Positions 1,553-56,803 of a stretch of 64,000 nucleotides of DNA are shown one piece after another. Within the stretch, counting starts at the first letter, position 1, and every line of letters starts with the position of its first letter. The translations under genes were made by a program, and so were the position numbers. A model generated the notes under the pieces. That model was not told the DNA's origin. It saw only the letters and a list, made by a program, of their open reading frames with translations, and did not search any database. Origin of the DNA: Rhina ancylostomus (taxonomy: Eukaryota); contig JARFYF010000084.1 of assembly GCA_030265395.1 (NCBI GenBank), positions 82,422,254 through 82,486,253 of the forward strand. Reading direction: 5' to 3'.

Positions 1553-2865
1553 TGATTATAGTCTCTATTGAACACTATAGACTATTTACAAAGCCTTGTT
1601 TACCTTTGTCATTTATTACCAACTCATTTTAAATTAACTAAGAAGAAACCATCATGACCACAAACTTGTACGCTGACTGGCTTGTTGGAATATATGCAGG
1701 GGGAAATAACTGGGTTGAATTCCTTGAAGATTTCACTGAATAAGTTGGAATTGAGCCAAGCATCTTGGGAACACGAGCTAGGAATTCAGTCCCTTGGGCT
1801 TACTCTATCATAAATAGGCGGCTTATATCTCAGTTCCATCAACCTCCCTTTAATTGTAATCCCTTGATATTTATTCTTAACTTATTCTTATTAATTCTTA
1901 ATAGGTCTACCTTTCTGACTCCGAGATGTTAGAATCCAAATTGTTTTGTGATTTAAAAGTTCTGCATTTCCACAATTTTTTTGATTGGGAAAAGTGCTTC
2001 CTGTCATAACTACAAAGTGGCCAACATCTGACTTTAAAATTGCCCTGAACTGGCCCTTCAGAAGAAGTATATTTTCTTCCTCCTCCTCTCAAAACCATTA
2101 ATTATTTTACAGGCCACAATGAGGTCATTGTTTAACTTTCATAGCTCAAGGAAATACAACCCAATTTTGTGCAACCTGTTGTTATACTTTACCCCTTTAT
2201 GCCCTGTATCATCCCAGGGAATGAAAAGGAGTTTATCTCTGTATGTTCCTTTTTTGTTAATTTGTCTCTGCACCTTAAAGTACTTGACAGGGTAGTGAAA
2301 TTGAATTCATTGATAACTTTGAAAGGGAATTGGATATGTACTCAAAGAACACATTGGGATTGGGTGGGAATTCCTCAGAGAACTGTCACAGACACATTGG
2401 GCCAAATGGCCCAGTGATGTTTGATTCTGTGATACAATATGAATCTCAGTACATTTAGACTGAAATAAAACATTCTTTTATGTAAAAAAAGACTCGACAC
2501 GAGAGTTTGTGCAAGAATCAGCACCTTTTTCAACTGATTTCATTCTTTCTTAAAGAGCATTTGAAATGCAATATTAATATCTGCCCCTCCTTAGTCAACC
2601 CTTTAAGCTGCTGCTGAATGAAAATTTCACCACAACTTTCAGACTTTGGTTTTCAGACCTTAGTCAGTCAATGTTTCAATCTCTGAAAAGCATCTCAATT
2701 TTCACCATGCTGATATCTTTTAACATTGGAATGCAGATTGCCTCAGGAATGGGAAAGTAAGAGTGCTGATTGGAAAATAGCAGGACTTGGCTTTCACAGC
2801 TACCGAGGAGGCCTTTTGTGGTGAAATGTTGCATAAATAATGCCAACAAGGGTCGAAATTCAGTG

Positions 2866-2879
2866 GTTGCCATGGAGAC
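2866..2879. promoter_or_regulatory. RFX X-box motif
   Basis: GTTGCCATGGAGAC is a 12/14 match to the palindromic X-box consensus GTTGCCATGGCAAC. Confidence 0.6.
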
Positions 2880-2948
2880 CTTTGTGCCTGGGTGAACTCC
2901 ATTCTACTCTGCTTGGAAGGCAGTGAGCACTCAGGCTGCCTGCATTGG

Positions 2949-3095
2949 ATGAGGCATTTTCTAATGAGTAGAAAAAGTTGTTTGCTCATTGGAAAGAATG
3001 TTAACTTGGGAAGACTTGGAGCATTTTGCTTTACTATTTACATAGCATGGTCCACATTCAGGTACTGGAACCGGGAATTTATCGATTTTGAGTAA
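2949..3095 (+). CDS. Candidate uORF/microprotein (48 aa from ATG 2949; 43 aa from ATG 2964) with a hydrophobic core
   Basis: MRHFLMSRKSCLLIGKNVNLGRLGAFCFTIYIAWSTFRYWNREFIDFE. Ends in tandem stops TAA TGA one base before a GT donor. Translation is unverified. Confidence 0.35.
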   Translation: MRHFLMSRKSCLLIGKNVNLGRLGAFCFTIYIAWSTFRYWNREFIDFE

Positions 3096-3826
3096 TGAGG
3101 TAACGCTGACTTTTTTTTTCATAAATGCTTGTGAATTGGGTAAGGTGCTTTGTCCTTTAGTTTGTCTGGTCAACAAATGCAGTAGCTGACAGCAATTTTT
3201 TGTCTGGGCCGGAGAAGGAAGGGAAATGAATTCTGTTTGCCTTGTGAGCAAACATGGGGGTGATTCGCCTGGTATCAATTATTTTTTGGATAAGAATTGG
3301 AGACTTGTAAGAGCCAGCTTGATCTACAACAGTTTACCTCGTCATTTATTGTATGTGAAGCTTAAGATAATTCCACAAGAAAAATATCCCTTGCAAACAA
3401 ACCCCTGCAGACAAACTGTAACTGGTGACCATTTGCTGTCTTTAGTTCTACCAGCACCCCACCCCTCCCATTCAAAACTTCAGGTTGTTGCAAAATACTT
3501 GTGCTTATTTTCTCGGATCTCCAGAATAGAGAAGGAGCATTTGAGGTAAAGTTGGAAGTGATTATTTTTATTTCTTGAAGAATTGAAGGGGAATTCTGAA
3601 AGTTCTTCAAAGTAAAAAGTGTGTGCTTGTGAGAAGGTAGGTCCAGCACACGCTGGTGGAGGAATGTAATGATGAATCCATCCTGTGAATAAATATAGAT
3701 GGCATTCAAAGATGAAGCAAATAAAAATAATCAGCCTCTCTTCCCCACCTCCCCCATCGACCTGGAGATCAGCCTGGAGCCGATTTGTCTTGAACGACAA
3801 TGCCCCTGAGATGTGCAAAGCTTTTA

Positions 3827-3890
3827 TGTTGTGTATTTGTGCCTAATCTTAGTTCTGTTGTGTATTTGTGCCTAATCTTATTTCTGTTGT
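3827..3890. repeat. 29-bp tandem duplication
   Basis: TGTTGTGTATTTGTGCCTAATCTTA(G/T)TTC x2, plus a partial third unit. Confidence 0.9.
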
Positions 3891-4073
3891 ATCATTGTTG
3901 TGCACTGTGATGTGTGATGCAAGCAGTGTCCCTTGTGATGTCTGTGATGTCTGGTCTCCTGAACTAAGCAGAATAATATTTTATTGAGACCTGCACTGAT
4001 TTAAAAGAAAGTTCAGCCTTTAAGTTAAGGATATGGATATGATCCATATTCTTATGAGGATATGGTCCATAAA

Positions 4074-4400
4074 GGGCGGCATGATAGCGTAGTGGTTAGC
4101 ACAACGCTATTACAGCACCAGCAACCTGGGTTTGATTCCCACAGCTGCCTGTAGNNNNNNNNNNNNNNNNNNNNNNNNNNNNNNNNNNNNNNNNNNNNNN
4201 NNNNNNNNNNNNNNNNNNNNNNNNNNNNNNNNNNNNNNNNNNNNNNNNNNNNNNTTCCTCCGGGTGCTCCGGTTTCCTCCCACATTCCAAAGACATATGG
4301 GTAGGTTAATTTGGGGTTTAAAATGGGTGGCATGGACTCGTTGGGCAGGAAGGGCCTGTTACCACGTTGTAAATAAAATTTTGAAAATTTTTTTTAAAAA
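4074..4400 (+). mobile_element. tRNA-derived V-SINE (HE1-like)
   Basis: A-box-like TAGCGTAGTGG, B-box-like GGTTTGATTCC, V-domain TTCCTCCGGGTGCTCCGGTTTCCTCCCACATTCCAAAGAC, CR1-type tail GAAGGGCCTGTT. Internal N gap. Confidence 0.85.
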
Positions 4401-5043
4401 AAGGGAGTTCGCTCATTTAATACTTATGATGAAACTGGGGCTTCAGTGTTTCATTTTGATAGAACTGTTAAGCTTTGAAACTTTATAAATGCAAATTGTC
4501 AACTGTGACGGGGTTTGGAGACCACGGGGACATCAGATCTGGAATAGCAAATGGAAAGGAGCCAAGAAAAATGGGAAATATCAAAGATGAATTTTCAGCT
4601 ACGAACTCCCCAGCAATAAATGCAAAGTGCCTCATTTTTTCTGCTATGTTATTCAACTTATGCTTTTAGATATAATAGTCCTTTTTAGAAATGTTCTCAC
4701 GAATTCGCTTATTTCTTCATCACTCCTGAACTTGATAATTTGTCGCTTGCCATCCTTGCCCAAAAACTGATGCTGTTTCAGTCACCTATAATGGTCAGTG
4801 TGGTCACAGGGCATCTCACAGTCAAGCTGAATCTCATTCAAAACTCACTTCACACTTTTTCTTCTGTATCCTATCTGAGTTATTGAGATGAAGTGCAAAA
4901 AACTCATTTGTGAACCATGTGCAGTAGTTACTGCTCAGTCATCAGGGGAGCTAACCCTATCTAAAATATTTATCTGGAGATGTAATTTTGGGCATGTAAT
5001 TATAGAATAAATTTTATCAATGCATAATCATAATCTACAGTAT

Positions 5044-5370
5044 CAACTTGCCTTTATATAACATCTTAAGCATTGCTAAATATCACAAGATGCTTGACAG
5101 AAACTTTGATTTCATTGAAGGGTGTTTTGAAGGAGAAGAAGTTGAAGTAATATTATAGAACAGTATAGGAAAGAAATTCAAACTTCAAGGGCATGGAGTT
5201 GAAGGCATGGCTGCCAGTGGTGGGGTGAAACAAGGTGTGATGCACAAGATGCCAGAACTGGAGGAATGCAGAGATCTCAAAGGGTGGTTGAACTGGAGGA
5301 AGTCTTGCAGATAGGGGTGTGGGGAAAAGCCCAAAGCAACAGAGTGATTTGAACATGTGGATTATCATTG
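5044..5370 (-). mobile_element. L2-clade LINE 3' end
   Basis: GAAGGCATGGCTGCCAGTGGTGGGG…GCCAGAACTGGAGGAATGCAGAGATCTC: reverse of the L2 C-terminal LRSS..GLL..P….TxGxRAF motif. Confidence 0.7.
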
Positions 5371-5496
5371 TAAGATCAAATGAAACCTGTGTGGTGGTGT
5401 TGAAAGATCTAAGAAATTATTCTTCCCCAGAAATTTTCCCCATTTTGTTCAAAAATATAGCAGGAGCAGAGTCTAAAACTCAGTTGTGGTAATGGA

Positions 5497-5626
5497 AAAT
5501 AAAACTTCAGATGCTGGAATCTGAAACCAAAACAGAAATGCTGGAAGAATTAGCCAGTCAATCAGCATCTGTGGAAAGAGAAACCAGTTAAATATTTCAG
5601 GTCAACGACCTTCATCAGAACAACTG
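5497..5626 (-). mobile_element. Penelope-associated short repeat with hammerhead motif
   Basis: CAGATGCTGGAATCTGAAACCAAAACAGAAATGCTGGAA…CAGCATCTGTGGAAAGAGAAAC, followed by the ribozyme motif. Confidence 0.8.
5585..5626 (-). ncRNA. Minimal type-I hammerhead ribozyme motif
   Basis: Minus strand: cagttgtt-CTGATGA-aggtc-gtt-gacct-GAAA-tattt-aactg. Core boxes intact, perfect 5-bp stem II, palindromic helix III (AAATATTT), cagtt/aactg flanks. Confidence 0.7.
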
Positions 5627-6124
5627 TGGTAAATTGTGATTGGAGTGGGGCACTCATGTGAAAGTTGAATGGCCAAACATAGAAATTCCAGAGTTAAAGG
5701 CTTTGGACAAGCCACTTTGACATGACGTGTTTGGAAATGAGACTAAATAGTCCTTCATTGGTCCATTGCTTTGCTAGATAACCTCTGCTGCTGGAGAAAA
5801 ATATCCTCTTGAATTGCTAAACAATGTCCATTCTCTGTCATGAGGCTGAGAATATTGCAGTGGTTCAGTTCTGGGCTACATCACTCTTGGTACAAGCTCT
5901 CCTTGGCCCACTAATTTAAATTAAAAGGTAATGTTCAGTGCTTTCCAAAATGTTAAACAANNNNNNNNNNCAAATTATGTAATAACTCAGTTTAATTGTG
6001 GCTGTATGCTGAAGGCACTGATATCACTAGCAGGAAAGTAGTGAGGGATGCACAAGATACTATAGTTGGAGACACACACAGTTCTCTTTAAGGGGCATTA
6101 TAAAGCTGAAGGAGGTCACTATAA

Positions 6125-6873
6125 AGAAAACCTTCACAGCACCTTTCATGGCCTTAGAACATCCCAAAGGATATTGCAGCTGTCAATAAAGTAGTCTGAA
6201 GTTTAGTCATTGCAAGGGAGGAACTCTACAGACCACTGAGTGATAGCCACAGTGGCCCAGCTCGGCTAGCAGAGCCACTGCCTCACAGTGCCAGACACCC
6301 AGGTTCAATCGTGACCTCAGGTGCTGTATCTGTAGAGTTTGCACGTTTTCCCTGTGACTGTGTGGGTTTCCTTCAGGAACTCCAGTTTCCTCTTGCGTCC
6401 CAAAATGTATGGGTTGGTAGGTCAGTTGGCCACTGCAAGTTGTCCCTAGTGTGCAGGTGAGTGGTAGAATCTGGTGGAATTTAATGAGAATGTGGGGAAA
6501 ATAAAAAATGGCCTAAATGTAGGATTAGTATCAATGACTGGTTGATGGTGGGTGCAAACATTGTGGGCTGAAGGGCCTATTTCCATGCTGTTCTATGACT
6601 GTACAAACACTAGATAATATCTTAGCTGTTATGATGTTGATTGAGGTCTAATAATTAGCTAAAATATTGTTGCTAACTTTCCTGCTCTTTCAAATTATGT
6701 CATGGGACTTTGAAGAGCACCTCAATTTAATGGCCAATCCAAACGATGGCATCTTTAACAATGCTTTGGTGTCTCAGTATCAGCAGATGTGCTCATGCTG
6801 CTAGAATGGAATTTGAAACCACAGTCGTCTGACTCAAAGGTATGAGTGTAATCAGCTGAGCCACATCTGACAC
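6125..6873 (-). mobile_element. Deu-domain SINE (SacSINE1/AmnSINE1-like), split by a V-SINE
   Basis: Tail at 6125-6245 (AGCACCTTTCATGGCCTTAGAACATCCCAAAG). Body and head at 6601-6873 (CCTGCTCTTTCAAATTATGTCATGGGA…CAGCTGAGCCAC). Confidence 0.65.
6246..6600 (+). mobile_element. V-SINE nested in a Deu-domain SINE
   Basis: tRNA head with GGTTCAATC, GAGTTTGCACGTTTTCCCTGTGACTGTGTGGGTTTCC, tail GGGCTGAAGGGCCTATTTCCATGCTGTTCTATGACT. Confidence 0.85.
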
Positions 6874-7704
6874 TGAGAGAGGTTCAAAACCAAGGAAGGA
6901 TTAGGGATCAGGCAGATTTTGTGTGTATTTGATATGATTTGTGAACTCTTACTGGGATTGGACAGAGTATGAGGTTTTGGTGGGTTTCAGGATGAAATAT
7001 GGAATGAGACTGCTGGTGACTGGGATGCTTGTACAACTGGCAAGGGACTGTATTAAAGGATGAAACTTAAAACAGTGGACTGGAGTGAAGTGATGTTTGG
7101 CTAGCAAGATGGTAATGGATGCAAAGGATGTTTTTTAAAAAGTAATCTGATCAAAGGGCTTTGGGTTGTTTATGTATGGATAAATTAAAACACAGGAAAT
7201 CTTATGAGCTGATTAACAGAATTAGGCATCAGTGACCCCGGTAAAAATAACCTAGCATTATCCACAATCTGAAATTTGAGTTGAGAATGTAGCACTGATT
7301 TCACTTCTCACTTTTGCAGACCTGCATGATTAAATTTCCCAGGGTTGTTTTTTTTTAAGTTCTGGATTCATTTTCACTGCTGCAGTTTAGGCTCATTTTT
7401 TGAAAACATTTCTTTTTCCAGGGGCCTTAACCATCTCCATCTCCTGCATGGGGTAAAATGGGGTCACACTGCTTCCCTGGTTTTATTATGCAACACGCAA
7501 TGATTGAGAACGATGAAGGATGCCTTCTGGTATTTCTCCCACCTGCACAACTTCCTGGCATGTGCTAGACTTTCTTGTCAATAGCTGCCTATCAGCAATG
7601 GTTGGCAACCTCCTGTCTGTAACAACCTGCCACAGAATTTTTGCTGTGAGCCAGCATCTGCTCCCTGTTGCATCATTGCTAAAAGTTTGACTATGCTTTC
7701 GGAC

Positions 7705-8015
7705 TTTGAAATGAAATGTTATTGTAATCTTAAAATCACATGGCCACAAAGTACAATGAGATAAAAGCTCTTTTGCAGTGAAGTTGGTTGAATGGTTAAT
7801 ATTAGCCAATAATGAGGAGAATTTTGCAATAGTAATATAGGATCTCCTTCGTTTGCTCAAAGGGGCAGATGGGGTCTTGGTTTAACATATAAACCAAATG
7901 TCAACATCTTTGATAAAGTAATCCTCCCTTCATTGCTGCGTTGGAATGTTAGTCCAGGATTTGTGCTCCAGTCTCTGGTGCGAGACTCTGAGCCAGGGGT
8001 GCTGCCAGCTGAGCT
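7705..8015 (-). mobile_element. Decayed Deu-domain SINE
   Basis: GTTGGTTGAATGGTTAATATTAGCCA…GGGGCAGATGGGGTCTTGGTTTAAC…TTGTGCTCCAGTCTCTGG match the reverse of the Deu consensus. Confidence 0.6.
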
Positions 8016-8517
8016 ATGGCAACCACCAGTCTGAGGAAATTATTGATTTGTGTTGGACAGAGACAACCAGGGGTCCGATTGAAGTTGAGGTGTATTCATT
8101 GACTGACTTCACATTGTTGGGAGATTTGAGAGATCTCTGTTTCATCGCAACTCGGCAGTTATGACGATCTCCAAATCCTACATGTAGGCAGATACTGAAA
8201 TACTGGAGCAAGTCTTGACTGCAGATTGCTGTTTTCAGCCAGACTGATTTTTGTTTTCCCCNNNNNNNNNNNNNNNNNNNNNNNNNNNNNNNNNNNNNNN
8301 NNNNNNNNNNNNNNNNNNNNNNNNNNNNNNNNNNNNNNNNNNNNNNNNNNNNNNNNNNNNNACCCCAGGGAGCCACAAGAGTGGCATCAGTGTTGTTTTT
8401 ATATAAAAAGGTAACACTAATGATTGCTCCGTACACAAATGTCAAGGTTTGCACTGTTTCATTGTTGTATATAGTTTGTTTTTAATGATTAGTTTATTTT
8501 GGAATAATATTAAAAAA

Positions 8518-10756
8518 ATACTGGATCTCCTCTTAGGGAATGAGACAGGGCAGGTGACAGAAGTATGTGTTGAGGAACACTTTGGATCTAATGATCATAA
8601 TTCCATTAGTTTCAAGATAATTATGGAGAAGGATAAGTCTGGTCCTTGGGTTGAGATTCTAAATTGGAGTAAGGCCAATTGTGATGCCATCAGAAGGGAT
8701 CTGGCTGGTGTGGATTGGGATAGGCTGTTTTCCAGCAAAGAGATGCTTGATAATTGGGAGGCTTTCAAAAGTGAAATATTGAGAGTGTAGAATCTATGTT
8801 CCTGTTAGAATAAAAGGCTAGCAGGTTTAGGGAACCTTGGTTATGGAAGGATATTGAGGTCCTGGTAAAGAGAAAGAAGGTGGCACACATCAGGTGTAGG
8901 CAGTTAGGATCAAATGAGGTGCTTGAGTATAGAAATGCAAGAGAACACTTGAGAGAAATCAGGACAGCAAAAAGATGACTAGGTTGCTCTTGCAGACAGG
9001 GTGAAAAGAGAATACCAAGGGTTTCTACAGCTATACTAAGAGCAAAAGGGTAGCAAGGGACAAAATTGTTCCTCTTAAAGATCAGAGTGGTCATCTATAC
9101 ATAAAGCCAAAAGAGAAGGGGGAAGATCTTAAATGAATTTTTTGCATCCATGTTTACTGTGGAGACAGTAAACACAGAACTGAGGAAAAAGTGTATCAAG
9201 GATTACAGAAGAGGAGGTGCTAGCTGTGATGAGGCAAATTAAGGTGGATAAATCCCCAGGGCCTGACAAGGTGCCCCTCTGATCTTGTGGGAGGCTAATG
9301 TAGAAATTGCAGAGGGTCTGACAGAGATTTAAAATGTCCTTCTCCACAGATGAGGTGCTAGAGGACTGGAGGATAGCTAATGTTGTTCAAGAAAAGCTCT
9401 AAGAGTAAGCCAGGAAATGATAGGCCAGTGAGCCTGATAATCAGTCATGGGTAAATCATTGGAAGGTATTCCAAAGGACAGGATATATTTGGATAGACAG
9501 GGCCTGATTAGGGATAGTGAACATAGCTTTGTGCATGGTAGGTGATGTCTAACTAATGCTGTAGTTTTGAGGAGGTTACCAAGAAGGTCGATGAGGGAAT
9601 GGTAGTGGATGTTGTCTACATGAACTTTAGCAAGGCCTTTGACAAAGTCCCATATGGGAGGCTGCTCCAGAAGGTTAAGTCGCTTGGCATTCAGGATGAA
9701 GTAGTCAATTGGATTCAATGGTTTAGCAGGAGAAGCCAGAGAGTGGTAGTAGATGGTTGTCTCCCTGACTGAAGGTCTGTGTCTAGTGGTGTGCCACAGA
9801 GATGGGTGCTGGGCCATTGTTGTTTATCATCCATATTAATGATTTAGATGATGTGGTAAACTAGATCAGCAAATTTGCAGGTAACACCAAGACTGGGGGT
9901 GTAGTGGACAACAAGGAAGGCTATCAAAGCCTGCAGTGTGATCTTGACCAACTAGGTAAATAGGCTGGAAAAATGGCAGATGAAATGTAATACAGACGTG
10001 CAAGGTGTTACACTTTGGGAGGAAAAACCAAGGTAACACTTACACAGACAATGGTAGGGCTCTGAGGTGTGCAATAGAACAAAGGGATCTGGGAATACAG
10101 ATCCATTGTTCCTTGAGTGGCATTGCAGGTAGATAGGGTTATAAAGATCTTTTGGCATTTTAGTCTTCATAAATCAGAGCATTGAGTACAGGAGTTGGTA
10201 TGTGATGTTGAAGCTGTACAGGATGTTGGTGAGGCCGATTGTGTGCAGTTCTGTTCACCTACCTACAGGAAACATATCAATCAGCTTGAAAGAGTGCAGA
10301 GAAAATTTACAAGGATGTTGCCAGGACGAGGACCTGAGTTATAGGGAAAGGTTGAATAGGTTAGGACTTCATTCCCTGGAGTGCAGGAGAATGAGAGAAG
10401 ATCTTGTATACAAAATGACGAGGGGTACAGATAGGGTGAATGCATGCAGGCTTTTTCCCCTAAGGTTGGGTGAGACTAGAAACAGAAGACATAGGTTTAG
10501 GGTGAAATATTCGAGGGGAATCTGACGGGAAACTTCTTCACTCAGAGGATGGTGCAAATGTGGAACGAGCTGCCAGCGGAAGTAGTGGATGCCGGTTAAA
10601 TTGCAACATTTAAGAAAAGTTTGGATAGGTACGTGGATGGGAAGGGTTTGGAGGGATATGGTCCAGGTGCAGGTAGATGGCAGTAGGCAGAAGATCAGGT
10701 CGACATGGACTAGATGGCCTGAAGGGTCTGTTTTTGTGCTGTAGTACTCTGACTCT
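8518..10756 (+). mobile_element. CR1-clade LINE (HER1-like), 5'-truncated ORF2 with endonuclease end, RT and 3' tail; many stops and frameshifts
   Basis: LDLLLGNETGQVTEVCVEEHFGSNDHNSISFKI; VDVVYMNFSKAFDKVP; SKFAGNTK (decayed FADD); RLNRLGLHSLECRRMRED; tail GAAGGGTCTGTTTTTGTGCTGTAGTACTCTGACTCT. Confidence 0.92.
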
Positions 10757-10757
10757 A

Positions 10758-10986
10758 AGTACTGAAGAGGTGCTGCACTGTCAGAAGTTAAACCAAAGAT
10801 CAATCTGCTTCTAAGGTGGACCTAAAATGGCACTCCTCAAAGAACAGGAGAGCTCTTCCAGTGTCCTGAATAACATATTAGTTTGAAACGATGGATTTTT
10901 TGTCTTTATGACAAAAGATAGCTGTTGTGATTTCTATGTTTGTGATTATTAGGAATGTAGCACTTCCTAAGCTCATGAAAGACTAC
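10758..10986 (+). mobile_element. Decayed Deu-domain SINE fragment
   Basis: GTACTGAAGAGGTGCTGCACTGTCAGA…GTTAAACCAAAG…GGTGGACCTAAAATGGCACT…GTGTCCTG. Confidence 0.65.
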
Positions 10987-11129
10987 AATTATTTTACAGT
11001 TATTTTGTGCTGTGTATAAGGTGAAACTCTATTTCAGAGAGAGTTATGTCAGGTAAATTATCAGTTAAATAAAGAAGGAAAGACACTTTACTAAATGTGA
11101 CTTCTGTATTGATTTTCTTGACTGTTGTC

Positions 11130-13275
11130 TTTGGTCAGATCGGTGCAACTCTGTGTCCTCAATGTGATTTAGGGAGGGGGTCCAGATTTACTTTTAGGAG
11201 ATGAAGCTGGACGTGTGGAAGGAGTATCTGTAGGAGAACATTGTTATGGTAGTGATCACAATTCAGGTCAATTTAGCATAGTTATGGAAAAGGGCAAGCA
11301 TGACTAATGAATCTTGGGGTAAGGCCGTTTTTTGTAAGTTGAAAACAGTTTAGCAAAAGTGGATGGAAGCAGGCCTCTGAGCAATCAGAGAGGCATTTAA
11401 GAAGGGGATTCAGGATAAATATGTTCCCACAAAAGGGCATATTTAGCACTTCCAAATCTACAGTACCCTTCGTAACAAGGGTAGGATACGGCCAAACACA
11501 AACTTTTGTCAGAAAATGAGAGCTTTATACAGTTGAAAAGTTTAGAACATTTAGGAGAAAAATGAAAAGGAAAATTAGGAAAATAAAGAGAGGGTGTGAA
11601 GCAAAATATTGTCTGGAAAATATACTTTAAAAATCCAAAGATGCTCTATAAGTATATAAAGAGAATAAGGAAAAAAGTAGGGATTATTAGGGACCAAAAA
11701 GGTAACTTGACTGGAGGTGGATGATATGGATAAAGTTTTTGAAAAATATTTTGTGACTGTCTTTGTATCAGATGATATGGTTATGGTGAATAAATGTGAA
11801 ATACTATAGAGGAAGAATCAAGGGATTTATCATTACTGAGAATAGATAAATCACAAACCCATACAACGTGCATCCTATGCTGTTAAAAGTAGTAAGAAAG
11901 AAATTTTGGGGCTCTAATAAAAATATTTCAACCCTCTGGTGTTAGAGGGTGGGAGCACTGTTATTGTAGTAGCATTGTTTAAAAAGGGAGGAGCGAGTAA
12001 ATGAGTAATTGAAGGCCATTTAATTTAACTTGGAATGGTTGGCAAATTATTGGAATCCATCTTAAGCAGCAGTACAAAACTTCTTTCAATCAGATTAATC
12101 AGTGACAGTTGGTATGGATTTGCTAAGGGAAGGTTCTTACTGTATACTCTAAATGAATTATTTGAGAAGGTATCAAGAAAGGCTCTTGATGGCAACGCAT
12201 ATGTAGTCTACATGGGTTTTAGCAAGAGTTTTGATACGGTTTGGCATGATGGGTTGGTAAAGTAAGGTAAAAGGCCATGGGATTTAAGAGGGTGGTGTGG
12301 CATTTTGGATGCCAGTGACAGGAATCAAAGGGCGATAGTTGATTGGTGTATTTGTGATTGGAAAGCTGTTAACACTGGGATTCCATAAGGCTCAGTACTC
12401 AGTCCCTTGGTTTTTGTAAGATATTTATTAATGATTTAGATCTAAGTATAGGGAACATGATAAATAAGTCTACAGATGATGCAATGATTGATGATGTGGT
12501 TAATGGTGGAAATGTTTAGATTACAGAAAATATGGATGGTCTGTCAGTTGGGCAGAAAAACAGCAAATGTAATTTAATCCAGAGAAATGTGAGGTGATGC
12601 CAATTGGGAAGGTGTAACATTACAATGGGTCATGTAATAAAGTGAGAGGATATTGACCGATGTGGAGGAGCAGTGGGATCTCGAAATGGATGACCACAAA
12701 TCCTTTAGCTAAAGATAGCAGGACAATTCAATAAAGTGTTTAAAAAGACAGGATATTTTCCTTTATAATCCAAGGCATAGAATATAAGAGCAGGGAAGTT
12801 ATGCTAGAACTGTATATAATACCAGTTAAGCCACAGCTTCAGTACTGCATTCGGTTCTGGCTACCACATCACATGGAGAAGCACAGGAGAGATTAACGAG
12901 AATGATGCCAAGACTGGAAAAGTTTAGCCGTGGAAAAAGTTTAGCTCCTTTAAAACAGAGGTGGCTGAGGAGAGTCATAATTGAGGAGCCTAGATGGGAC
13001 AAATATGGATAAAATATTTCCCTGAGCAGAGGGGTCAAACACCAACAGGCATTCATTTGTAGTACTAGATTAAAGGATTAGAGGGGAGATGAGGAAACTT
13101 TTTTTCATCCATAGGGTACACTTTCATCACATTTAAACGGTATTTGGTTATGTAATTGAAGAACTGTGAATTGTTTGGTCATGTACTTAGTGTAGGAAGG
13201 TGGGAATAGCTTGGGGTGCTCCTTATTAATTTGGCACAGAAATGATGGGTTTGAATGGTCTATGTTATAATCATA
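11130..13275 (+). mobile_element. Older, more decayed CR1-clade LINE ORF2 and tail
   Basis: VGKLLESIL…GFAKGR…YVVYMGFSKSFDTVWH; AAGTCTACAGATGAT (KSTDD); CR1-type 3' end. Confidence 0.85.
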
Positions 13276-13459
13276 CTGGAGTGTGAAGAAGGAATTTATT
13301 ATGCTGCATCACACCGCAACCCCCCCCACCCCCCCAACCCAAATCCTACATTTGTACCTNNNNNNNNNNNNNNNNNNNNNNNNNNNNNNNNNNNNNNNNN
13401 NNNNNNNNNNNNNNNNNNNNNNNNNNNNNNNNNNNNNNNNNNNNNNNNNNNNNNNNNNN

Positions 13460-13627
<168 letters not shown>

Positions 13628-33855: not shown

Positions 33856-34474
33856 CAACAACTTAGCACTGTGATTTTGATGCAAGATTCTGTAAATAGT
33901 AAAGCATATGAAAATATAGCAATCATATGACAATCCTAAATGCTTTTCAGCTCATGGTACTTCTGGTTGTTTAGGGTATGCAACCAGAATCTTTAGTATT
34001 TGCAATTAATGACTAATTTGGACCACAGATTTCTGTGCTGACGTACTACATGCAGCAAAAAAGCAGGAATTCAGCCCAATCCACCTTAAAGCCTATTCCA
34101 CTGCGTCCCCTCAGCAAATGCCTTTCTCCCGCATGGCTGACTAGCTTCTTCTTAGATTTTTCTGTTCAACTACTCATGCTGGAGTGTTTCAAACTATTGC
34201 ATTTCACTGTTTGATTGGTTCTGGTAAATTTCTTTTTATTTTCTTACAGTAAATCAGTATCTTAAGTGTACACACTGAAATTGTCTGGAGACCACAAACC
34301 TTGGTGTACCTAATAAAAGTAATAGCCAGTGTAGAAAAAGTTGCACTACCCATTCAGGAATTAAACTATATTGGAGAGAACTCTGCCACCTGTGCCCTTA
34401 AGTGGCATTTTAACAATTTGGACCATTGAGATTTAGGCCATGTTAATCAGAGGCTTTACTGTTGTAATCCATTT

Positions 34475-35300
34475 GGAGTCATAAAGCAATACAGTATAGA
34501 TACAGGCTTTTTGACCCAACCAGTCCCATGCTCACCCAGATAGTCCCAAATTCCTGCATTTGGCCCATATCCCTCTAAGCACCACCCCTCCATATACCTA
34601 TCCAAGTGCTTCTTTAGTGATATTATTGTACCTACTTCAACCACTTCCTCTGGCAGCTCATTCCATATTCTCACCATCCTCTGCTTGGTAAAGTTGCCCC
34701 TCAGGTCCCTTTTAAATCTTTCACCTCCCATTCTAACCCTATGGCCCCTAGTTTTGGACTTCCTTAGCCTGGGGATAAGATTGTTATCATCCACTTTATC
34801 TATGCTTCTCATAATTATAAACACTTCTATAATGCTGCCCCTCATTCTCTTGTATTGCAAGGAATAAACACCTAGCATGGCGAACCGTTCCTGATAACTT
34901 AGGCCCTGTCATCCTGGCAACACCCTTGTAAATCTTTTCTGCACGGTTTCCAGCTTAACCAAGTCTTTCCTATTACAGGGTGACCAAAACTGTACACTAC
35001 TCCAAGTGCGGCCTCACCAGTGACTTGTACAATTGCAGCATATGTCCCAACTCCTGTACTCAATGACCTGACTAATGAAGGCCAGCATGCTAAACCCCTT
35101 TTTCACCACCCTGTCTACCTGTGATGCCGCTTTCAACGAACTATGCACTTGAATTCCTATGTCTCTCTATTTCATTACACTCCCCATGTCCTACCATTCA
35201 TAGTACAAGTCCTATGGTGGTTTGACTTTCCAAAATGCATCACCTCGTACATCTGTATTGAAATGCATTTGCCACTCTGTTGTCCCTGGACTCTTGATAT
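34475..35300 (-). mobile_element. CR1 LINE 3' portion
   Basis: LGVYSLQYKRMRGSIIEVF…KTRGHRVRMGGERFKRDLRGNF…RIWNELPEEVVE. Confidence 0.9.
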
Positions 35301-55451: not shown

Positions 55452-56803
55452 TTGAACATAAAATATAGAAAAGTACAGCACAAGTCATTTGGCCCATGAT
55501 GTCTGTGCTGACCATGTTGCCAATTTAAACTGCACATCTGCCTGCACATGGTCTATATCCCTCGATTCACTGCCGGTTCATGTGCCTGTGTAAATGCCTC
55601 AATCATTGCTGTCATATCTGCTTCCACCACCTCCCCGGCAGCACGTTCCAGACACCTACCACACTCTGTGTGAAAAAGGAACTTTCCTTGTAAATCTCCT
55701 TTAAACTTTTTTCCCTTGCCTTAAATCTACACCCTCTAGTCTTTGACATTTCCATCCTGGGAGAAAGACTCTGACTTTCTAGACTATATATGCCTCTCAT
55801 TTGATATACTTCCATCAGGACGACCTTCAGCCTCCAAAGCTCTAGAAAAAACAACCCAAGTTTGTCCAACCTCTCCTTATAGCTAATACTCTCTAATCCA
55901 GGCAACATCCTGCTAAACCTCTTTTGCACCGTCTCCAAAACCTCTACATCCTTCCTGCAACACAGTGACCAAAACTGCACACAATACTCCAAATGTGGAC
56001 TAAACACTGATTTATACAGCTGCAGTATGGCGCACCAAATTTCATATTTAATGCCCTGACTGATAAAAGCAAGTGTTTCATATGCCTTCTTCACCACCCT
56101 GTCTGCTTGTATTGCCACTTTCAGTTAGCCATTTTCAGGGATTATGGACTTGTACCCTAATATCCCCCTGTACATCAATACTCGAAAGGGTCCTGCCATT
56201 TATTGTATACTTTCCTCTTACATTTGACCTTCAAAAATGCAACTCCTCACACTTGTCCGGATTAACCTCCATTTGCCATATCTCTGCCCATATTTCCAAC
56301 TGGTCTATATCCTGCTGTTTCCTTTGACAACCTTCCTCACTATCCACAACTCCACCAATTTTTTGTGCCATCTGCAGACTTGCTAATCCGCCCACCTACA
56401 GTACATATTTGTCCAAGTCATTTATATGTAAAACAACGGAGGTCCCAATACTGATCCGAAAAGAACACCACTGGTCACAGAACTTCAGTCAGAATAATAT
56501 TGCTCCACCACTAGCCTCTATGTTCCATTGCCAACCCATTTTGAATCCAATTTACCAATTCACTGTGGATCCCATGTGCCATAATCTTTTGAATTAGCCT
56601 ACCATGAGGGACCTTGTCAAATGCTTTACTGAAGTCCATGAATACCAGATCTATTGTCCTATTCTCATCTTCATCACCTCAAACAGCTCAATCAAATTTG
56701 GAAGACATGATCTCCCCTCCACAAAACCATACTGACTATTCCTATTATATTTATGCTTTTCCAGATGCGAGTAGATCCTATCACTGAGAATCTCCTCCAA
56801 TAA
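55452..56803 (-). mobile_element. CR1 LINE RT and 3' end, inserted in an L2 3' fragment
   Basis: SQYGFVEGRSCLPNLIELFE; AAGTCTGCAGATGGC on minus (KSADG); LQLYKSVFSPHLEYCVQFWS…VQKRFSRMLPGLE. Confidence 0.92.

Follow-up and report, generated by a model that had tools for sequence, protein, structure and literature searches.

We propose that positions 3047-3061 of the window, by which we mean the whole 64,000-nucleotide (64-kb) stretch of DNA analysed here, most probably form the last, coding part of an alternative CTNND2 first exon, which would be transcribed from an internal promoter in intron 2 and would encode the five residues MVHIQ in frame with exon 3. A query of the genome with stingray CTNND2 places exon 2 at C84:82211285-82211437 and the start of exon 3 at 82435761 of the same contig. 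Since these coordinates flank the MVHIQ site (82425300), the latter lies in the 224-kb intron 2, on the sense strand, approximately 10.4 kb 5' of exon 3 and 214 kb 3' of exon 2. The mapping bears out the first-pass annotation of this DNA, which had placed the locus in intron 2 of CTNND2. The acceptor that it reported (13507/13508) and the downstream ATG at 13607, with A at -3, are likewise present in the sequence, and the segment that opens at this acceptor is exon 3 (table 1). The pyrimidine tract preceding exon 3 is the strongest in the window, ranking first of 1920 YAG sites by pyrimidine fraction, while exon 4 falls outside the 64 kb. Over six CTNND2 exon regions, identity reaches 92.4% with the sawfish (Pristis) protein and 89.5-91.5% with other rays and skates, in comparison with 86.1-88.9% for sharks and 81.0% for the chimaera. 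The CTNND2 query also matched other loci of the p120 family, at C1:37.13-37.22 Mb, C46:34.71-34.84 Mb, C63:63.9 Mb and C29:47.3 Mb.

The first-pass annotation had proposed an alternative first exon at this site, spliced to 13508 and carrying a conserved microprotein. A first exon joined to 13508 is indeed likely; its conserved product, however, is likely the MVHIQ start and not a microprotein, the ATG at 3047 and a second donor, CAG/GTACTG after 3061, having been overlooked. The reading frame of 3047-3061 is one base off that of the 48-codon open reading frame (ORF) on which the microprotein was based, and is in frame with exon 3. With A at -3 and G at +4, the ATG has the best context of the six found in 2850-3110, equalled only by that at 2872. 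Of the nine positions of the U1 consensus, the donor after 3061 agrees with six, G at +5 being absent, and the predicted intron (3062-13507) measures 10,446 nt. A codon pattern for M[VI][HR][IVA][QKP] followed by GT in phase 0, which was composed after the MVHIQ site was known, has a single match in the window, at 3047 (0.01 expected), and one within the 224 kb of intron 2 (approximately 0.004 expected on the sense strand). Genome-wide (2.2 Gb) the pattern returns 41 forward and 29 reverse matches, 70 in total, and its reversed control 86. When 112 short queries derived from other database N-termini were compared with the window, the matches listed were noise except for MVHIQ and one intron read-through. 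A scan of metagenome sequences for the exon pattern recovered 40 loci, none of the 40 with similar flanks. The same intron contains a look-alike that we attribute to chance, 2.8 kb before exon 3, in which an ATG and the codons for MVQVQ (10658-10672) are followed by GT (10658-10674, forward strand); it sits in a repeat-like stretch, 10543-10673 being 75% identical to 34553-34683.

Table 1. Features of the alternative start region and of CTNND2 exon 3, in window coordinates.
Feature	Position	Strand	Remarks
CCAAT boxes, three, at 2769, 2944 and 2988	2769..2992	-	within 300 nt 5' of the ATG; slight indication of a promoter
RFX X-box-like palindrome, candidate promoter element	2866..2879	.	168 nt before ATG 3047; sole match in the window at up to 2 mismatches
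48-codon ORF, overlapping and out of the MVHIQ frame, likely chance	2949..3095	+	48 aa; 43 aa from ATG 2964
15-codon upstream ORF, putative	2998..3045	+	its stop is separated from ATG 3047 by one base
Five coding codons (MVHIQ), 3' end of the predicted alternative first exon	3047..3061	+	strong-context ATG; the same pentapeptide opens shark models
Donor GTACTG, phase 0, likely exon end	3062..3067	+	CAG/GTACTG; use predicted from annotated proteins in other species
Second candidate donor GTAACG	3100..3105	+	GAG/GTAACG; consensus 6/9, same score as the 3061 donor
CTNND2 exon 3, coiled-coil core	13508..13620	+	113 nt; translation matches catenin delta-2
Met within exon 3 at which head-less database isoforms begin	13607..13609	+	12/294 database proteins begin here

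The distribution of the pentapeptide among annotated proteins provides the main support for the exon. We compiled a set of 294 CTNND2 proteins, which are annotation models and not sequenced peptides, from an exon 3 search (best 120 of 1595 matches), a search seeded with MVHIQ (best 120 of 1418) and two cluster look-ups; in the first of these, two shark proteins start with MVHIQ directly before ELQFERL. Over the whole set, a five-residue start of the form M[VI][HR][IVA][QKP] directly precedes ELQFERL in 47 of 294 proteins, a proportion that measures spread and not frequency, given that the set consists of top matches and that one search was seeded with MVHIQ. MVHVK is the most common (24), followed by MVHVP (10), MVHIQ (4), MIHAK, MVHVQ, MVHAQ and MVRVK (2 each) and MVRVQ (1). 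The remaining proteins begin in exon 2 (136), at the exon 3 methionine (12) or elsewhere (89, largely intron read-through or one-off starts), or are without exon 3 (10). Among cartilaginous fishes the five-residue start can be found in Scyliorhinus, Heptranchias, Heterodontus, Chiloscyllium, Hemiscyllium and Callorhinchus, and among teleosts in many species, including Megalops, Danio, Cyprinus, Oryzias, Gasterosteus and salmonids. An identical MVHIQ joined to exon 3 occurs in Heptranchias perlo (XP_067857201.1 and XP_067857191.1), Heterodontus francisci (XP_067912378.1) and Scyliorhinus torazame (GCB73660.1). In contrast, the starts of Callorhinchus milii (XP_042187824.1, MVRVQ), Danio rerio (XP_073773992.1, MVHVP) and Oryzias latipes (XP_078791674.1, MVHVK) use the same junction and differ at one to two residues. 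Because the models were compared as protein and not as DNA, the orthology of these exons is deduced from the pentapeptide together with the splice position.

The presence of the start in chimaera, sharks and teleosts would date its origin to the split between cartilaginous and bony fishes, or before it. Within the 294, a set in which large tetrapod clusters were left out, none of the tetrapod proteins shows it. Megalops has two five-residue starts, MVHVQ and MVHVP, on contigs of different length, suggesting that the exon was kept by both teleost paralogues. From these comparisons of protein models, an ancient alternative start is likely to be real and to figure in the automatic annotations of other fishes, though apparently not yet in those of rays. 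Our literature search, which extended neither to supplements nor to most subscription journals, found no published description of it.

The MVHIQ models belong to sharks, whereas the present genome is ray-like, and among 33 ray proteins there is none with an MVHIQ start nor with any other five-residue start. According to this hand count, which covers the 15 of 29 and 15 of 47 members listed for two big clusters of cartilaginous fishes, 24 of the ray proteins begin in exon 2, six at the exon 3 methionine (3-4 accessions each) and three with MNDYKSFK. The absence of ray models is what would be expected if the exon were a silent relic in the ray lineage, homologous to the shark exon yet no longer spliced or translated. 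This we regard as decidedly unlikely, with the ATG, its context, all five residues and the GT intact and matching those of sharks; such intactness is nevertheless only moderate evidence against a relic, because substitution rates in cartilaginous fishes are slow. The ray proteins also bear on a scenario compatible with the use of the 3061 donor, which we consider possible though on the unlikely side. The same first exon might also, or in rays mainly, be spliced at 3099, in which case the ATG at 3047, read through 3061, would open a 14-codon upstream ORF (stop at 3089-3091) and reinitiation at 13607 would produce a delta-catenin devoid of the coiled coil. The two donors match the consensus equally well, and this equality, the exon 3 methionine starts of the six ray proteins and the missing five-residue starts together indicate that in rays the 3099 donor may serve alongside the 3061 donor or in its place. 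Against this, models of both kinds exist in Chiloscyllium and in Callorhinchus, so that methionine-start models need not derive from the 3099 donor, and a ribosome scanning towards 13607 would encounter as many as seven ATGs on the way, those at 3047, 3095 and 13579 among them. A delta-catenin without coiled coil was the very product that the first-pass annotation had assigned to this exon. Isoforms that start at the exon 3 methionine do exist in the database set, and PMC7948131 describes human isoforms with a downstream start; the conserved start of the exon, ending at 3061, would instead preserve most of the coiled coil. More speculative, and in our view rather improbable, is an ancient two-donor switch in which splicing at 3061 would give a capped coiled coil and splicing 38 nt later a short upstream ORF plus a head-less protein; rays would lean to the second option, and the human head-less isoforms would descend from the same promoter after loss of the five codons. 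Regarding the other short start of rays, MNDYKSFK precedes exon 3 in models of Mobula birostris, and it has no match in our genome at up to one mismatch, which does not by itself prove its absence.

The remaining readings of the site concern the sequence around the five codons. The ORF at 2949-3095, the TAA that closes it (3093-3095), the TGA that follows (3096-3098) and the GAG/GTAACG donor after 3099 are all present as first described, and an intact frame ending just before a plausible donor could fit the proposed conserved, functional single-pass membrane microprotein of 43-48 aa encoded on a bicistronic transcript. We give this proposal hardly any credence. Homologues of the 48-aa peptide were found neither among proteins of 26-84 aa nor in Pfam (E up to 10), and the ESM Atlas gave no usable hit, although each of these blanks is weak given that unannotated small proteins are often missing from such collections; the ORF is also single copy in the genome. 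Its hydrophobic stretch is matched by chance in the window, and the best 19-residue segment differs from the one originally quoted. The Kyte-Doolittle maximum of that segment (1.11) is close to the window median, 75 of the 158 ATG-initiated ORFs of at least 43 aa in the window (the candidate included) being at or above it, and on the Kyte-Doolittle scale alone it falls short of a membrane-spanning segment; over 15 residues, 66 of the 158 are as high as its maximum of 1.5. Weak contexts surround the ATGs at 2949 and 2964, each being preceded by a pyrimidine at -3 and followed by A at +4. Finally, the frame is unlikely to be intact in relatives, since the MIHAK start of the carpet sharks Chiloscyllium and Hemiscyllium would force a TGA at the Trp34 codon if the exon is orthologous, the kind of frame disruption that the first-pass annotation had itself named as speaking against the microprotein. 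The 48-codon ORF is therefore likely to have arisen by chance across the five-codon start, and its role could at most be that of a weak upstream ORF overlapping this start, should transcription begin before 2964. We also rejected a reading of 3046-3099, with the AG at 3044-3045 as its acceptor and its donor after 3099, as a cassette exon of 54 nt inserted in frame between exons 2 and 3, which it almost certainly is not. Although the segment is open in the exon 3 frame, with phase 0 at both ends, no strong acceptor precedes it (the pyrimidine tract is ordinary, ranking 322 of 1920) and the insert is absent from all 227 database proteins compared, the sole shared 5-mer being the low-complexity GTGTG, in 3 proteins. 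With the microprotein likely reduced to a chance frame, the locus probably represents a second start, ancient but ordinary in kind, of a gene for adhesion in the brain.

If the five codons at 3047-3061 do close an alternative first exon, transcription would begin at an internal promoter in intron 2, a short way upstream of 3047, and splicing would join 3061 to 13508, skipping exons 1-2. Translation from 3047 would then yield a delta-catenin without the approximately 40-50 low-complexity residues of exons 1-2, in which the coiled coil, beginning one heptad ahead of exon 3, would be largely retained. In the heptad register, which we assigned by hand, residue 2 occupies a core 'a' position; it is V in 45 and I in 2 of the 47 five-residue starts, and exon 2 supplies an invariant V at the aligned position (136 of 136 proteins). 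As V or I fills this position, the five-codon exon would provide the coiled coil with a cap, and the low-complexity head would be lost. In the MVHIQ transcript, the acidic tail of the 48-codon ORF would fall inside the intron, and its frame would stop seven codons into exon 3 (13527-13529).

The X-box-like palindrome and the CCAAT boxes upstream of the ATG are hints of such a promoter and not more. Using the RFX X-box consensus taken from general knowledge, one match at up to two mismatches is present in the window where 0.20 are expected, and 17 of 100 shuffles contained one; a looser consensus returned five against 4.69 expected, that is, chance level. At least three CCAAT boxes occur in 13 of the 189 300-nt bins of the window. 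No CpG island was detected near the exon (CpG o/e 0.24), and no literature linking CTNND2 with RFX3 and the X-box was found. A bacterial promoter scan of the window gave no sites, its model not being relevant to vertebrate DNA. The strong-context ATG at 2872 lies inside the palindrome and opens a 7-codon ORF (2872-2895, forward strand). A Synchiropus model with a differing N-terminus, also starting MET, is joined to exon 4; this is possibly another X-box-borne start, or a coincidence.

Alternative N-termini of CTNND2 have precedent in human. The gene is described as having four isoforms, of which three employ a downstream start codon, with the coiled coil unique to the longest, as well as intragenic promoter elements (PMC7948131); PMC9289679 gives the same account. 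In these two accounts, the human short isoforms resemble the start proposed here in that they too arise from internal promoters that bypass exons 1-2, but they are without the coiled coil, most of which the product of the five-codon exon would keep. A further parallel is offered by p120-catenin isoforms 1 and 3, where, as reported in PMC4148249, the choice of N-terminus likewise sets the presence of the head that binds DIPA/CCDC85. The difference is one of extent, since p120 switches the whole 101-aa head (PMC4148249) and the CTNND2 start would drop only the part before the coiled coil. In the experiments described there, the head is the region to which CCDC85/DIPA proteins bind in members of the p120 family, including delta-catenin, and the coiled coil of p120 was not sufficient by itself for DIPA binding (PMC4148249). 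Fishes would thus possess a third class of delta-catenin, with the coiled coil but without the preceding head, which would separate the two regions for DIPA/CCDC85 binding tests. Additionally, mutations directed at exons 1-2 in fishes would leave the five-codon-start isoform intact; the zebrafish lines presented in PMC10351287 target ctnnd2 exons 5 and 6, and would hence be unaffected by the alternative start. Overall, we consider the significance of the five-codon start to be modest.

The window as a whole, which includes 16 runs of N totalling 2284 bases, gave no Rfam matches. Its only stop-free frames of at least 150 codons are the three at 34459-34908, 55615-56124 and 10372-10821 (-), and none corresponds to a Pfam family; the first two resemble decayed ends of CR1-type LINEs. 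An element at 4074-4340, masked in its middle, is SINE-like and presumably akin to elasmobranch SINEs.
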